Positions 403-4,997 of a DNA stretch of 21,849 bases are shown one piece after another. Source of the DNA: Gemmatimonadales bacterium (lineage in GTDB: Bacteria; Gemmatimonadota; Gemmatimonadetes; Gemmatimonadales; GWC2-71-9); NCBI GenBank assembly GCA_035577525.1, contig DATLVL010000009.1:1-21849 (forward strand), read 5' to 3'. The position numbers were made by a program, and so were the translations under genes. Position 1 is the stretch's first letter. Each line of letters opens with the position of its first letter. The notes under the pieces were generated by a model that saw only the letters and a list, made by a program, of their open reading frames with translations, had not been told where the DNA came from and ran no database searches.

Positions 403-720
403 TCATGCGTCCTCGTCCCAATTCGGATCCGCCTTGCGCTCGGCGGTGCGCGCGCGGTGGAAGGCGCGCGACAACGCCCGCTGATCGGCGGTGCACTGAT
501 AGATGTACTCGATGAGACGCGCCCGTGCGCGCACCCGCGCCCCCGTGAGGTCGACGAACATGACCCACTCGGGCACCGGTGATTCACTGAGCGACGCCTC
601 GATCGCTTGCGCCATCTCGCGGCTCACGGCCCACCACTCGATGTGCGTCACCACGAGGAAGTAGTCGACCGGCAACTCGGGCCGACCCGCCTGCTCGTAC
701 CGCTCTTTTGTGATCTTCAT
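403..720 (-). CDS. hypothetical small protein (105 aa), tightly coupled upstream of hen1
   Basis: Within ORF 403..753(-). The internal ATG at 720..718 gives MKITKERYEQAGRPELPVDYFLVVTHIEWWAV...; the upstream extension is Arg-rich and starts with TTG. The stop TGA (405..403) lies 1 nt before the hen1 ATG (401..399), implying co-translation and an operon. I recognise no family. Confidence 0.55.
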   Translation of the reverse strand: MKITKERYEQAGRPELPVDYFLVVTHIEWWAVSREMAQAIEASLSESPVPEWVMFVDLTGARVRARARLIEYIYQCTADQRALSRAFHRARTAERKADPNWDEDA

Positions 721-748
721 GGTCCGCCGGCCGCGGACTGCGCGGCCC

Positions 749-795
749 CTCAAAAGAAATCGCCCCGTCCGGCGACGCGCGCGGACGGGGCGATC
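749..795 (-). terminator. strong intrinsic terminator on the minus strand (13-bp GC stem plus U-tract), 28 nt upstream of the 403..720 start codon
   Basis: Plus-strand 760..772 (tcgccccgtccg) pairs with 782..794 (cggacggggcgat), leaving a 9-10 nt loop gcgacgcgc. On the minus strand the hairpin is followed by TTTCTTTTG (plus-strand caaaagaaa at 751..759). Confidence 0.6.
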
Positions 796-812
796 AGTCG
801 CGGACTAGCCGT

Positions 813-938
813 CTAGATCGGTCCCGCTCGCCCCGCGTTGTCGGGCGTAAATGTGCACGGCGACGCCGCGCGTGGCCGCGAACGCGCCACCCGCACATCG
901 CCTGCTGCCTGTCGGCCATGCATCGCAAGGACAGTCAT
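813..938 (-). CDS. candidate leader peptide (uORF, 41 aa, Arg-rich) in the hen1-operon leader
   Basis: Minus-strand ATG at 938..936 is preceded by GAGGT with a 6-nt spacer (aggtttGAGGTaatcccATG). Translation is MTVLAMHGRQAAGDVRVARSRPRAASPCTFTPDNAGRAGPI, with stop TAG at 815..813. The last codons (gcg ggg cga, 836..828) are complementary to the 5' arm of the downstream terminator. Short ORFs in GC-rich DNA can be chance; this call rests on the SD and on context. Confidence 0.3.
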   Translation of the reverse strand: MTVLAMHGRQAAGDVRVARSRPRAASPCTFTPDNAGRAGPI

Positions 939-1008
939 GGGATTACCTCAAACCTCTGCTCGTCTGACGCCACATCGTGTACTCGCTATTGAACTTCAGG
1001 ACGGCCGG

Positions 1009-1037
1009 ATTCTAACAGGGCGGGGCGACAACTCCAA
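1009..1037 (-). promoter_or_regulatory. candidate sigma70-like promoter for the leader, uORF and hen1 operon
   Basis: Minus strand reads TTGGAG - 17 nt - TAGAAT (plus-strand ctccaa at 1032..1037 and attcta at 1009..1014). It sits just downstream of the metalloprotease stop. Sequence-pattern only. Confidence 0.25.
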
Positions 1038-1044
1038 GGAGGGA

Positions 1045-2772
1045 CTACTGGCCCGGCGGCAGGCGGAACACCGCCATCCCGGGATTGAGCGTTGCCGGAA
1101 ACGCCGCCCCGCCCGGCGCCGCGAACCGCACCGAGACCGCCGCCGAGCTCGCGGGCGTGTCCAGCCGGAAGTAGGTCACCGTACCGGGATAGAGCACCGC
1201 GGTCGACGTGTCGCCGGTGACGGCAAAGAGCTGGACCGGCATCGGCAACGGGATATCGGAGCTCGGCCCGGAGGTGGTGAACAGTCTGGCCCACAGCTGC
1301 CGCATGTTGCGCGACGTGAACCGGTCGACGGCCGGTGCCGTGGTGCGCGGCAGACCGGGCAGGCTGTCGGTGTAGAGGGCCAGCCCGAAGTCGGCGAACA
1401 GCGCGGGGAACGGCCGGCCCGTGGCCTGCTCGATGTCCGCCACACCCCCCGCTGGACCGAGCTCGAGCTGCCGGTACATCCCGGCCCCTCCCTGATCGAC
1501 GAGCCAGCGCACCAGGAGCCACGCGCCACCACGCCACGAGTCGCCCGGCTGGTCATCCGATTCGAGCGTGATGCTCGCGGTGTCGGGCAGCAGCCCGAAC
1601 TCATAGGAGTCGAACAGGAAGCTCTGCACGAAGCCTTGTGCCGAGTCCGGGAACAGCTGCGACGGATCGGTGCGGCACGACGGCGGCGGACAACGCGACT
1701 CGTAGTAGAGCGAGCCCAGCTCCTCCGCCGCGATACTCATTCCTTCGTCCAGCCAGCTGGCCTCGGGTTGCCCGCCCCCGACTACGACGTGCTGCGAGTA
1801 GCTGATGAGGTGCTGCAGCTCGTGCAGGAACACGGCCGGCACGTCAAAACCCACTTCATCCACGGTGTGCGCACAGCTCGACACGCCGTTCGGGTCCGGC
1901 ACGATCGAGTAGAAGATCTCGCCCTGGTTCGAGTGCGGGTCGGACGAACCGGAGAAGTCTTCGGGGTTGAAAAATCCCGCGACGAATCCTTGGGTCGAGC
2001 AGGTCGCCGCCGGCGTGTCCGCGTTCACCACCTTGGACATCAGCATGATGATGCGGCCGTTCTGGTCGATGTCGGAGGGCTTCCCGAACGCGGCGGTGTC
2101 GATGGGCCAGAGCGTCTGGTCAAAGTAAGACCCGAATGTCTGGAGCTGCGCGGGCGTGAAGCCGGATGGAGCGAGCGTGTCGAGGTAGAGCAGCAGGTTG
2201 GTGCCGCTGTAGGCGAGTCGCGCGGTCACCGTCGCGAACGTCGCAGACGTAAAGTTCGAGAGCACCTGGAAGTTGTGTATCGTGTCGGGCGCTGCCATGC
2301 TCGCGAGACTCTGGCGCCGCAGCGCGGGCGTGCGCAACGTGCCGGACCGCGCCAGCTCCGTCCCCTGCTCGCGCAAATAGCGATCCGCCATGCGCTGCGC
2401 CGTCAATGGCCGAGCCCGGAGCCCTTGCAGCTGTGCTGCCGCGTGCATCCGATTGGCCGCGGCGGCGGGTGACAGCGTTCCGCTGGCAACGCTGTAGTTC
2501 ACCAGCTGAAATGGCGCCTGGTCGGTAGCAAACTCTGGGACAATGAGATAGCTCGCGCCGCCACCGGCGAAGGTGACCGTCGTGCCGCCGTTGCTGCAGT
2601 CGAGCCGCAACGTCGCCGCGACGGCGAGCCGCACCGTGTCGCTGGGCAGGCAGGGATTACGAGTGAAGGTAAACGTGTGCGGAGCCGTCGAGTCCGAGCT
2701 GTTACAGGCGACGGCGCCGACAGCGGCGCAGACGATGGCGAGGCGAGACCGGGGAGCCGAGGGAGCCCTCAC
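1045..2772 (-). CDS. secreted/lipoprotein zinc metalloprotease (HExxH...E gluzincin-like)
   Basis: ORF 1045..2892(-). It contains HELQH followed by a downstream Glu (WLDEGMS), i.e. an HExxH-x(n)-E zinc-protease motif. I prefer the internal GTG at 2772..2770 as the start, giving MRAPSAPRSRLAIVCAAVGAVAC|NSS, a lipoprotein-type signal with Cys. The GTG at 2892 would add a 40-aa pre-signal extension and overlap the upstream gene. The start is uncertain. Confidence 0.7.
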   Translation of the reverse strand: MRAPSAPRSRLAIVCAAVGAVACNSSDSTAPHTFTFTRNPCLPSDTVRLAVAATLRLDCSNGGTTVTFAGGGASYLIVPEFATDQAPFQLVNYSVASGTLSPAAAANRMHAAAQLQGLRARPLTAQRMADRYLREQGTELARSGTLRTPALRRQSLASMAAPDTIHNFQVLSNFTSATFATVTARLAYSGTNLLLYLDTLAPSGFTPAQLQTFGSYFDQTLWPIDTAAFGKPSDIDQNGRIIMLMSKVVNADTPAATCSTQGFVAGFFNPEDFSGSSDPHSNQGEIFYSIVPDPNGVSSCAHTVDEVGFDVPAVFLHELQHLISYSQHVVVGGGQPEASWLDEGMSIAAEELGSLYYESRCPPPSCRTDPSQLFPDSAQGFVQSFLFDSYEFGLLPDTASITLESDDQPGDSWRGGAWLLVRWLVDQGGAGMYRQLELGPAGGVADIEQATGRPFPALFADFGLALYTDSLPGLPRTTAPAVDRFTSRNMRQLWARLFTTSGPSSDIPLPMPVQLFAVTGDTSTAVLYPGTVTYFRLDTPASSAAVSVRFAAPGGAAFPATLNPGMAVFRLPPGQ

Positions 2773-2849
2773 GAGGCTAAGTGGTACTGCGAGCCCGCCA
2801 CGAAGTTCCTGAGCAATGCTCGCGTTAACAAGGCCGGGCGTGTGCCGTC

Positions 2850-4997
2850 TTACGCGCCCCCGCGAATGACCTCGACACGCAGCTCCACCCACCCGTCGAC
2901 CTGGTAGTACTCGGCCCGCAGCCGGTGTCGTCCGCCGGCGATCGGCACCTCGTCGACCTGCGACTCGTGCGGCGTCCAGGCATCGACCCTAAGTGTGTCG
3001 TCGACCCAAACGCGCACCGCGTCGTCGCTGATGGTGCGGAGCCGGAAGGACCCGGGCGGCAGGTCGACGGAGCCGGTGGCGTCGAGCGACCAGTGCTCCT
3101 GCGGAAGGTGGGCCATCGATCGAGGCGGCCGGTACCACATGAAATCGAGCCGCGGCGCCAGCCCCGAATCGATCGGTTGCGCGAACCGGTTGGCGCTGTC
3201 GCTCCAGGTGAAGAAGCGCATGCGCCAATCGATCGGCGGCTCGAATCGGCCATAGGAGAATCGATAGGGCTGCCCCACGGCGCGCGCGACCCCTCGCGGG
3301 GACATGGTTGCCGCGCCGCGATACTCGAGCGTGACGCTCCAGTCGCCCAGTGAATCCCTCGCCGGCGTGACTACGAGCGTGTCGCCGACTCGACCGCTTG
3401 TTCGTGAGAGCGCGGCAACGCCGCGACGTGACACCACACGCCAGCGACCCGCCGGGCCGAGGACCGCGAGCCGCAACGGCACGGCGCGCGTCGAGTCCTC
3501 TGCCACCGGCCACAGTTTCGGACTACGCCAATCATAGGGGCCCCATTCATCTACTATGATGGCCGACCGGTCCCGCCGCGACATGGCCGACACGGGGTAA
3601 CCGGACAGCGTCGGCAAGCCGGTCGCCGGCTCGGCCGTCGGCAGCGATGTGTCGCGCGTCGTCACATTGTCGCTGATGTCGACCCGGGCCGTATCCCGCA
3701 GCACCGCGAGCGAGTCGACGTCGAGCCAGTGGTTGGCAGTGAAGCCGAGTCCCGAAGTCTGTCGCGCGCGCAGCGCGACACGGTTCCGCACAAACACATT
3801 GAAGGAGATCCGATAATCGCGGCTGCGCGTGTCGTGGTGTTTGGGGTAGCCCCAGTCCGAAGGCTCGATCGAGTCGGCCCACAGCTGGATCGCCGTCGAG
3901 TCGTGGGCAAAGCGATTTGCCTCGATGAGGTTGTCCTGCCCGTGCTCGATCGCGATGCCGGTCCGGTTGCCGCGGAAATCGTTGCCGGCGATGTGCGACG
4001 AGAAGCTGTACCCGCCCCACACACCGTATTCGCTTCCCCAGGCGCGGTTGTTGACGATGTCGTTGCGACTGAACGTTGCTTCGATGCCATTGGCCGTCGC
4101 GTAGCTGACGTCGTTTCCATAAATCAGGTTGTCGTTCGCGCCACCCGTCCCTGAATCCATCGTCGTCTGCCCTGCCCACAGAAACACGCCGTCGCCGCCG
4201 TGCGTGAGCGAGTTATCGGCGATGATGTTGTGGCAGCTCTGCTCGTAGATCAGCAAGTCCGCCGAATCCTGGCCGCGCGTGTACCAGCGATGGCTGTAGC
4301 CGCGCACGTCGTAGTCGATGCGGTTGTGGAGGATCGAATCGTCGGAAGAGCGATACAGTCCCACGCCGAGGCCGGAATTGAACGAGAAGTCGTTGTCGCG
4401 AATCGCGACCCCGTCGCTCCGCACGACGAGCAGCGCGTTCATCCCCTGGCGCACGGTGTTGCCGCGCACCGCTCCCCCCGTCACGTCCGCCAGGTAGATC
4501 GCCGCGCCGTAGCGCAACCATTCATCGTGCTCGTTGTGGTGAAACGTCAACCAATCGACGAGGCTCTCGTGCTCCACCAGCGAGTAGAGCCGCGGCTTCC
4601 AGTTGTAGCTCAGGTCATTGTCGACAAGCGTGAGGCCGTGGGTGCCGCGCGCCAGGATGCCGACCTTGTAGCCGCGCACGCGAGCGCCCTGGAGCCGGAC
4701 GTTCGTGCCGCCAAGGACGATGATCGCGGTGTCTCGCGCCTGGTCAGGATCGGCCTCGGGTGAAATCCGCTGTAACGTCGCACCGCGGAAATCGACGCTA
4801 ATGCCGTCGCCTTTCACGGTAATCGGTGCGGTCAGCCGGTAGATCCGCGGAACGACACGGACCGAGCGCGTGATCACCATCCCCGACTGCAGCTCGATCG
4901 GGGCCTGTGCGAGGATCAGGACCAGAGGCAACACGGACAGGCCTACTGTACGGTCAGCTCCGCGTGCAGATCGGCGGTGGACGATTCTCCCACCCAC
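2850..4997 (-). CDS. right-handed parallel beta-helix repeat protein with a C-terminal PA14-like domain (putative polysaccharide-active enzyme), secreted
   Basis: 715-aa ORF. The N-terminus has a signal-like RRSARGADRTVGLSVLPLVLILAQA. The middle has many NxxDN, IxDN and GxxxxGN beta-helix repeat signatures (VDNDLSYN, IRDNDFSFN, IADNSLTHGGDG, IYGNDV, IEANRF). The C-terminus DDAVRVWVDDTLRVDAWTP...YYQVDGWVELRVEV looks like PA14. The GTG start at 4997 overlaps the GH3 gene by 55 nt, so the start is uncertain (alternatives are GTG 4934 or TTG 4931). Confidence 0.7.
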   Translation of the reverse strand: MGGRIVHRRSARGADRTVGLSVLPLVLILAQAPIELQSGMVITRSVRVVPRIYRLTAPITVKGDGISVDFRGATLQRISPEADPDQARDTAIIVLGGTNVRLQGARVRGYKVGILARGTHGLTLVDNDLSYNWKPRLYSLVEHESLVDWLTFHHNEHDEWLRYGAAIYLADVTGGAVRGNTVRQGMNALLVVRSDGVAIRDNDFSFNSGLGVGLYRSSDDSILHNRIDYDVRGYSHRWYTRGQDSADLLIYEQSCHNIIADNSLTHGGDGVFLWAGQTTMDSGTGGANDNLIYGNDVSYATANGIEATFSRNDIVNNRAWGSEYGVWGGYSFSSHIAGNDFRGNRTGIAIEHGQDNLIEANRFAHDSTAIQLWADSIEPSDWGYPKHHDTRSRDYRISFNVFVRNRVALRARQTSGLGFTANHWLDVDSLAVLRDTARVDISDNVTTRDTSLPTAEPATGLPTLSGYPVSAMSRRDRSAIIVDEWGPYDWRSPKLWPVAEDSTRAVPLRLAVLGPAGRWRVVSRRGVAALSRTSGRVGDTLVVTPARDSLGDWSVTLEYRGAATMSPRGVARAVGQPYRFSYGRFEPPIDWRMRFFTWSDSANRFAQPIDSGLAPRLDFMWYRPPRSMAHLPQEHWSLDATGSVDLPPGSFRLRTISDDAVRVWVDDTLRVDAWTPHESQVDEVPIAGGRHRLRAEYYQVDGWVELRVEVIRGGA

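Follow-up and report, generated by a model that had tools for sequence, protein, structure and literature searches.

A conserved leader with the layout of a ribosome-mediated transcription attenuator in front of a small gene and hen1-pnkp in Gemmatimonadales

A stretch of 21,849 nucleotides (nt) from a Gemmatimonadales bacterium (contig DATLVL010000009.1 of assembly GCA_035577525.1; the window from here on) holds on its minus strand a leader region, followed by a gene for a protein of 105 amino acids (aa) and by the RNA-repair gene hen1. On balance we lean towards the reading that this leader is a ribosome-mediated (leader-peptide) transcription attenuator gating the small gene and hen1-pnkp. 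The signal sensed would most likely be the general capacity or speed of translation, as changed for example by damaged tRNA or rRNA or by translation inhibitors, and not one amino acid. The leader has a short upstream open reading frame (uORF) with a start codon and a ribosome-binding site, an intrinsic terminator before the first gene, and an antiterminator that excludes the terminator; a cluster of regulatory codons for one sensed amino acid was not found in the uORF. An earlier sequence-only reading of the window had proposed the arrangement of segments 2:3 versus 3:4, and this agrees with what the leaders of relatives conserve, namely the mutually exclusive pairing. As far as alignments can establish it, every element is conserved, as are both alternative pairings and the open frame.

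The features of the leader and of the genes under it are given below. All coordinates are on the minus strand, relatives are labelled with L-numbers and proteins with P-numbers, and A2 is an alignment of 33 leaders.

1044..721, minus strand: non-coding spacer (the leader) of 324 nt between an upstream open reading frame (ORF) with a HExxH motif and the 105-aa ORF
1009..1037, minus strand: promoter-like element, with the -35 hexamer TTGGAG (1037..1032), a 17-nt spacer and the -10 hexamer TAGAAT (1014..1009); sequence and register are conserved in relatives
945..949, minus strand: Shine-Dalgarno (SD)-like GAGGU, 7 nt 5' of the uORF AUG; from the sequence, the aligned UGAG(A/G)UAG being nearly invariant in A2
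813..938, minus strand: uORF of 41 codons plus a TAG stop (MTVLAMHGRQAAGDVRVARSRPRAASPCTFTPDNAGRAGPI); from the ORF list, with invariant AUG and aligned stop
859..902, minus strand: hairpin P-A within the uORF (codons 13-27), holding the Arg cluster and followed by a conserved UUU(U/A); from RNAalifold, A2 columns 70-79 with 103-113
843..847, minus strand: segment 1 (CGCCC), which may pair with the 5' half of segment 2; from truncated folds, with weak support
816..835, minus strand: segment 2, made of codons 35-41 at the uORF 3' end, with an 8-mer at 835..828 and the family register at 833..816; from RNAalifold and single folds
800..813, minus strand: hairpin 1, which overlaps the uORF stop or follows it directly, at the apex of the antiterminator; A2 columns 160-165 with 177-183
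751..795, minus strand: intrinsic-terminator-like hairpin, with the 5' arm 794..782 (segment 3), a 10-nt loop 781..772, the 3' arm 771..759 (segment 4) and the tail UUCUUUUG 758..751; from folding and conservation
729..751, minus strand: GAGGGG (751..746), the probable SD of the small gene, then hairpin 3 (GGCCGCG 747..741 with CGCGGCC 735..729); hairpin from covariation, SD inferred
720..403, minus strand: 105-aa gene, the first gene under the leader; from homologues and a conserved start codon
1..401, minus strand: 5' part of hen1, 133 codons, running off the window; PF12623 Hen1_L and TIGR04074

From the -35 hexamer to the start codon of the small gene, about 290 nt can be aligned in 59 loci with 39 distinct sequences, these loci being all those with a small protein at least ~60% identical and enough upstream DNA. 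The sequence 5' of the -35 hexamer is unrelated among loci and the upstream gene varies, being the HExxH gene in the window and L093, tRNA-Pro(GGG) in L031/L075/L079/L081, an ABC transporter gene in L103 and a NosD-like gene in L097. Because the leader is conserved whatever the upstream gene, it belongs to the downstream genes. Judged from the alignments, the conservation of the whole arrangement in ~60 loci of soil Gemmatimonadales far exceeds chance. Two other origins of the hairpin were considered and rejected: it is not the terminator of the upstream HExxH gene, since the upstream gene differs between loci, and it is not a genome-wide repeated palindrome, since it occurs once per locus and always 5' of the small gene. 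The hairpin motif had no match in viral contigs. A search of Rfam gave no match at the gathering threshold for the window (at E <= 10 only chance matches to the terminator stem), nothing at E <= 5 for the leader of L002, and only tRNA for ten related loci, with no T-box and no Y RNA or YrlA.

The promoter proposed earlier, TTGGAG-17-TAGAAT, is present, and relatives keep its register in the form TTGAG(N)/TTGGNN-17-TA(G/C)NTT, although a generic sigma-70 scan does not report it, its -35 hexamer matching TTGACA at three of six positions. The promoter is assigned because of this conservation alone. Where a tRNA gene abuts the leader, substitute hexamers are found, TTCAAA-17-TATAAT in L003 and TTGAGG-17-TAAGGT in L031.

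The 41-codon uORF preceded by GAGGU was likewise found as described (938..813), with its AUG invariant and its frame conserved across relatives. The first base of its stop codon is also invariant in A2, and 28 of the 34 distinct leaders have exactly 41 codons, the others having 38, 39, 40, 40, 45 and 24. Two internal insertions or deletions (indels) measure 3 and 9 nt; two others, of 1 nt, fall within the last four codons, and the stop has moved only by +4 or -2 codons. The central uORF of the divergent L109 is largely unalignable, yet it has exactly 41 codons, and L005, whose 5' half has been replaced, retains the frame and the stop with a GAGGUAA and an AUG of its own. The mean pairwise difference is 0.30 at the first codon position and 0.28 at the second and at the third, without codon periodicity; the first dozen residues are ~40% different pairwise, and the choice of codons departs from that of the window's genes, rare ones occurring all along the uORF. 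Because substitutions lack a three-base periodicity, translation and not the peptide appears to be selected. This suggests that an open, AUG-bearing frame ending at this spot is under selection and that the peptide is not, which is, on the alignments, the pattern expected of a regulatory leader ORF.

It might be argued that the 41-codon ORF is a functional small protein, such as a toxin or a regulator, and that the hairpin is simply its terminator, as the length of the ORF and its C-terminal residues (..TFSPRYTARTGST) are conserved. However, the equal substitution at the three codon positions, the divergence of the N-terminal third and the unusual codons do not fit a protein-coding gene, and the C-terminal conservation coincides with RNA segments 1 and 2. 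A functional uORF peptide was rejected for the lack of codon periodicity, and we give this explanation hardly any credence. Most leaders of the 75%-identity cluster (the cluster from here on) contain an additional mini-ORF of 6 codons (AUG...UAG, for example encoding MFLGLR), whose stop overlaps the uORF SD; it lies at A2 columns 6-26, at ~3751..3771 in L002 and at 965..945 in the window, where the window lineage has ACG in place of its AUG.

The terminator claimed by the sequence-only reading, a 13-bp GC stem with a tail, is present and conserved, but the distance from the tail to AUG720 is 30 nt and not 28. The isolated hairpin has a folding energy of -32.8 kcal/mol, G795-U758 being a possible additional pair; in A2 it is 99.3% paired and the stem is invariant. 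Among 45 distinct hairpins of the wider family, compensatory changes are seen at five stem positions (for example G-C/A-U/G-U at +1 and U-A/C-G at +2), and a GCCCC...GGGGC hairpin is found upstream of small-gene homologues down to 37-48% protein identity. A U-rich tail usually follows, and in L082 this tail runs directly into the start codon (GGGGUUUUUGUUUAUG). By these comparisons the hairpin is an old, structurally selected RNA element of the small-gene family. The gap between terminator and gene is, going by its length, too short for a promoter, and in L081, which is without hairpin 3, only ~20 nt are left; the earlier claim that no independent promoter lies between the terminator and the 105-aa ORF is in agreement with this. 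Hairpin 3 covaries at columns 243/261 (GC/AU) and 248/256, and its deletion in L081 puts GAGG 9 nt from the AUG. Hairpin P-A is ~94% paired, with a compensatory AU/GC change at columns 73/110 and another at 72/111, and hairpin 1 is 94.8% paired, with an AU/GC change at 160/183.

The behaviour of the stem has also to be considered in terms of a protein. A trans-acting factor, that is an RNA-binding protein and possibly the 105-aa product, could set a conditional terminator by binding the AUCGCCCCGUCCG/CGGACGGGGCGAU hairpin or the antiterminator, and the uORF would then be incidental or secondary. The stem is invariant though the adjacent proteins differ by 25-40%, while hairpins 1, 3 and P-A vary and covary, and the outer AUCGCCCC/GGGGCGAU is kept even at 41-48% protein identity. 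However, multi-partner pairing in an attenuator would explain the invariance of the stem too, and a trans-acting factor leaves unexplained the invariant AUG, the length of 41 codons, the in-frame indels and the SD and AUG recreated in L005. We consider this explanation unlikely, though worth keeping in view.

The pairing that would compete with the terminator was derived from the alignment. With the 3' arm of the terminator left out, RNAalifold pairs columns 141-143, 145-149 and 153-157 with 200-202, 194-198 and 188-192, and the antiterminator of the family is a three-part helix of 15 bp between the last six uORF codons (833..816) and 795..779, with hairpin 1 at its apex. The 15 pairs (columns 139-157 with 188-204) are formed in 96.7% of cells, versus 22-48% when the partner is slid by 1-3 columns, and the minimum-free-energy folds of truncated single transcripts use this register in 27 of 33 cases. 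The truncated transcript of the window folds in the register of the 8-mer, and those of its closest relatives (L093, L096 and L098) in the family register. Each one-sided change at columns 146, 153 and 157 puts U in place of C opposite a G, and CGACC:GGUCG in the cluster corresponds to CGAUC:GAUCG in the window lineage, a double change from C-G to U-A at columns 156/189.

The 8-mer on which the sequence-only reading had based its antiterminator, CGGGGCGA (835..828, codons 35-37), exactly complements UCGCCCCG (793..786), and it is the minimum-free-energy partner of the terminator 5' arm in the window transcript cut before the 3' arm. Most relatives have CGGCGCGA at this site, with one mismatch. 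The mutually exclusive pairing of the uORF end with the 5' arm is conserved, but the exact 8-mer is limited to the window lineage; the alignment of orthologous leaders, which had been suggested as a check, supported the uORF frame and the terminator but neither the exact 8-mer nor the Arg specificity. Folding, another suggested check, gave energies that are close in the cluster (terminator ~-31, antiterminator with hairpin 1 ~-35 kcal/mol), whereas in the window the terminator is the stronger (-32.8 versus -25.8 kcal/mol). A pairing of segments 1 and 2 (columns 125/127/129 with 143/141/139) appears in 16 of the 33 truncated folds, that of the window included, and in a shifted 1:2 register compensatory changes are found at two of four pairs, in one sequence each, one of them L042.

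If the leader is an attenuator, transcription would start at the conserved promoter, ~55 nt before the 41-codon uORF. Segment 3 (795..779, the terminator 5' arm plus loop) could be bound by segment 2 (833..816), with hairpin 1 between them, forming a long antiterminator. A ribosome located at the stop codon while the polymerase makes segments 3 and 4 would cover segment 2 and the 5' half of hairpin 1, the 3:4 terminator would form, and transcription would stop 30 nt short of the small gene, at the U-rich tail. With the ribosome delayed, stalled early or not loaded, the free segment 2 would capture the emerging segment 3, and the antiterminator would permit read-through into the 105-aa gene, and into hen1-pnkp where present. 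In a kinetic version, the antiterminator would zip from hairpin 1 before segment 4 exists. Hairpin P-A with its UUUU could be a pause signal that couples the ribosome to the polymerase. It is from the conserved sequences that we infer translation of the uORF, termination at the hairpin, the structural switch and the identity of the signal.

The effect of a ribosome was modelled by masking its footprint and computing the partition function for the 33 sequences. With the A site at codons 34-42, the terminator probability is 0.96-0.99; without a ribosome it is 0.79, and a ribosome at codons 22-28 lowers it to 0.65-0.69 and flips 10-11 of the 33 sequences to the antiterminated state. The consistent result of this model is that a ribosome at the uORF end would enforce termination. 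Because the equilibrium model switches only partly, the relief of termination by stalling would have to be kinetic.

Several observations weigh against the attenuator. The uORF SD is weaker (GAGAUAG) in most of the cluster, a 41-codon open frame is not rare at 68% G+C, frame +2 being open in half of the sequences, and in most relatives other bases break up the U tract (UUGCAUUUG). A protein-binding site could instead be the reason why the 13-bp stem is nearly invariant. As the 1:2 anti-antiterminator is weak and is found in about half of the sequences, an untranslated leader might be either ON or OFF, and in several sequences the best complement of the terminator 5' arm is the 3' arm of P-A and not segment 2. 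Other points of this kind would suit a constitutive terminator ending a short transcript (promoter and uORF or small RNA), in which case the small gene and hen1 would be expressed by leaky read-through and the complementarity would be a by-product of a GC-rich, CG-repetitive sequence. Comparable complementarity does arise in shuffles: among dinucleotide-shuffled leaders 5.6% have an exact complement of at least 8 nt to the 5' arm, and for the last 60 nt of the uORF the share is 3.7%, a marginal outcome (p ~0.04-0.06) for the control that the sequence-only reading had named for its 8-mer. The duplexes of shuffled uORFs with the 5' arm average -20 to -23.5 kcal/mol, against which the observed RNAduplex values have z-scores of -0.2 to -2.5, and given the outcome of the shuffles we did not count single-sequence complementarity as evidence. 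The z-score of the whole-leader fold is only -1.3, the terminator wins at equilibrium in most sequences even with a stalled ribosome (the minimum for the window is 0.47), and the covariation of the antiterminator amounts to one compensatory pair in one lineage, a change that also improves the outer pair of the terminator (G-U to A-U).

However, the complementary segment is at the same columns in 33 leaders and most substitutions keep the pairing. The leader accompanies the small gene and none of the upstream genes, no other promoter is present for the downstream genes, and it would be paradoxical for a conserved operon to have a strong constitutive terminator 30 nt in front of it. We find a purely constitutive terminator improbable.

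The sequence-only reading had gone further and tied the leader to arginine. It would sense charged or intact tRNA-Arg via the Arg codons of the uORF and induce Hen1/Pnkp upon attack by anticodon nucleases that target tRNA-Arg. Some findings are in line with this: R21, R37, R16 and R23 are among the best-conserved codons, CGA makes up 46% of uORF Arg codons versus 2.7% in the window's genes, and the tRNA genes directly 5' of the small gene in rtcB-linked relatives are almost always tRNA-Arg. However, Arg codons are not enriched in the uORF frame, which in the window has 6 versus 12 and 5 in the other frames and in L002 has 10 versus 9 and 4, and the same holds across relatives; the Arg richness of the uORF therefore reflects base composition. 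The Arg cluster (codons 16-23) is inside the covarying P-A hairpin, and the conserved Arg codons sit in helices whose conservation extends to all three codon positions, while Arg positions 2, 8, 9, 19 and 20 vary freely. There is also no tandem Arg run at codons ~27-32, the best spot for freeing segment 2 and covering segment 1. The proposal thus found no support in the codon counts, and sensing of tRNA-Arg seems to us very unlikely. Perhaps the uORF is a detector of tRNA damage, in which stalling at rare Arg codons (CGA, AGA) after tRNA-Arg cleavage would lead to antitermination and induce a small RNA-binding protein together with Hen1/Pnkp; this is a long shot. If true, Gemmatimonadales would own a 'repair or replace' module that is centred on Arg-tRNA and in which the ribosome is the sensor, acting in cis.

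The attenuator reading, with general translation as its signal, has several known counterparts. Like the trp, his, leu and thr leaders of E. coli, the leader has a promoter-proximal ORF, a terminator that directly precedes the first gene and an antiterminator in which the ORF 3' end pairs with the terminator 5' arm, and its alternating C-rich and G-rich segments (P-A, 1:2, 3:4) are like those of the six-segment his leader. Unlike the E. coli amino-acid leaders, it has no codon run for one cognate amino acid and its 1:2 pairing is weak, and the targets are a small protein and RNA-repair enzymes instead of biosynthesis. It is also like T-boxes in being a terminator/antiterminator leader that would monitor tRNA status, but T-boxes are without a uORF, and neither the window nor L002 has a T-box match in Rfam. 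We know of no attenuator described in Gemmatimonadota. In the leaders of erm, cat and ARE-ABCF genes, such as B. subtilis vmlR (PMC9226507), a ribosome that stalls or slows on a uORF blocks a terminator or a sequestering hairpin and induces a stress-relief gene, much as proposed here. Those leaders use arrest peptides or drug-dependent stalling, whereas here the first 20 residues are poorly conserved and no arrest motif was identified, and their output is ribosome protection or modification where here it is RNA repair.

Bacterial RNA-repair genes are known to be regulated by proteins that act at promoters. Enterobacterial rtcBA is controlled by RtcR with sigma-54. Anabaena has a repressor, TrcR, through which translation inhibitors turn on rtcB, hen1-pnkP and a long tRNA array (PMC8421152, PMC10272220), and because of this system the induction of RNA repair by translation stress has a precedent. 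As in the RtcR and TrcR systems, RNA-repair genes would be turned on when translation is damaged or inhibited, but RtcR and TrcR are protein factors, while here the sensor would be the translating ribosome on an RNA switch in cis; no RtcR-like or TrcR-like gene was seen adjoining the window's operon. The mechanism is known in kind, and it is the leader family, the host phylum and the target genes that are new. No leader or attenuator for hen1 or pnkp was found in the literature searched. If the reading is true, hen1-pnkp would gain its first described attenuator, as would, to our knowledge, the Gemmatimonadota, and the leader would represent a direct, protein-free link from translation damage to RNA repair.

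The leader was originally placed in front of a hen1 operon. It is indeed tied to the downstream genes, but the first regulated gene is the 105-aa gene, and this gene and not hen1 is the constant partner of the leader. The identity of Hen1 in the window is clear (PF12623 Hen1_L, E = 3e-56, plus a TIGR04074 match). The window itself stops within hen1 and pnkp is known from relatives, a full hen1 (466 aa) followed by pnkp being present in L094/L026 and L097-L102. The hen1-pnkp pair is downstream in the window, in L094, in L097-L106 and in many more loci. It is missing in L093, L095 and L096, where the small protein is 96% identical to that of the window and where, in L093, the upstream synteny is that of the window; it is also missing in L004, L029, L043, L045, L054, L056, L060 and L065, and in L003, L033-L035 and L039-L046 only 5' stubs of it are left, 29-183 codons long. 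The loss of hen1-pnkp is therefore recurrent downstream of an intact leader and small gene, and the identical small protein P0001 occurs in L093 without hen1-pnkp and in L094 with it. The downstream neighbour in L109 is a Ser/Thr kinase gene.

The 105-aa protein has 43 homologues with a conserved start codon, all on contigs of Gemmatimonadales type, and the single match with a named source is from Gemmatimonadales. Scans of genomes and metagenomes with this protein gave 92 loci, of which 25 are from assemblies, all of them metagenome-assembled genomes of Gemmatimonadales/Gemmatimonadota, and look-ups of individual proteins added 19 loci. There was no match to the protein in Pfam, PADLOC or PHROG. 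Its predicted fold is a small beta-barrel with a C-terminal helix (predicted local distance difference test, pLDDT, 72.6), and comparison of this model with known structures gave sub-threshold matches only. Distant relatives of the small protein (35-69% identity) adjoin rtcB, a frequent order being a tRNA array, rtcB, one or more tRNA-Arg genes and the small gene. Being consistently linked to Hen1/Pnkp, RtcB, Ro/TROVE and tRNA arrays, the 105-aa family may be a new component of RNA repair or one of its regulators.

The gene upstream of the leader in the window is the following.

2892..1045, minus strand: ORF of 615 aa with a HExxH motif; read from the ORF list

This ORF had been called a metalloprotease and does contain the motif HELQH, and it has no match in Pfam, NCBIfam or PADLOC. 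The gene caller gives 529 aa for the corresponding gene of L093, and the real start may be 3' of the GTG of the 615-aa ORF.

In relatives at 48-65% identity (L006, L008-L011, L069, L071, L073, L108 and L110/L111; for example 889..4303 of L008), the order is 3-14 tRNA genes, rtcB, 1-3 tRNA genes, 200-800 nt and the small gene; in L069 and L108 there are tRNA genes and the small gene, with no rtcB within the DNA examined. The tRNA genes after rtcB are nearly all tRNA-Arg (ACG, CCG, TCG, TCT), and in one case, L110, the locus continues with tRNA-Thr, an ORF of 144 aa and a TROVE/Ro gene. This layout looks like a tRNA 'repair or replace' island. Tandem repeats are found 5' of the small-gene start or across it, AGCTGAT-like in L008 (~3900..4000) and GTCG(C/T)A(G/A)-like in L022-L025, and they recall the direct-repeat operators before rtcB and the tRNA array of Anabaena (PMC8421152).

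A different leader occupies the 130 nt before the small gene in rtcB-linked relatives at ~50% identity (L006, L007, L009-L011, L013 and L069-L073). It has a uORF of 13-20 codons with a strong SD and a covarying hairpin inside, and this uORF ends in a conserved GGAGGUGAUGCC-AUG-A, from which a second ORF, 2-4 codons long and with a perfect SD, arises. Relatives at 41-48% identity (L014, L016, L018-L021 and L084) have, 140-335 nt before the small-gene homologue, the conserved AUCGCCCC...GGGGCGAU hairpin, then an SD and then a conserved ORF of ~50 codons (MLDIRLLLLETPEDRYEPS...), after which the small-gene homologue begins. The ~50-codon ORF shares an (E/D)RYE motif with the N-terminus of the window protein.

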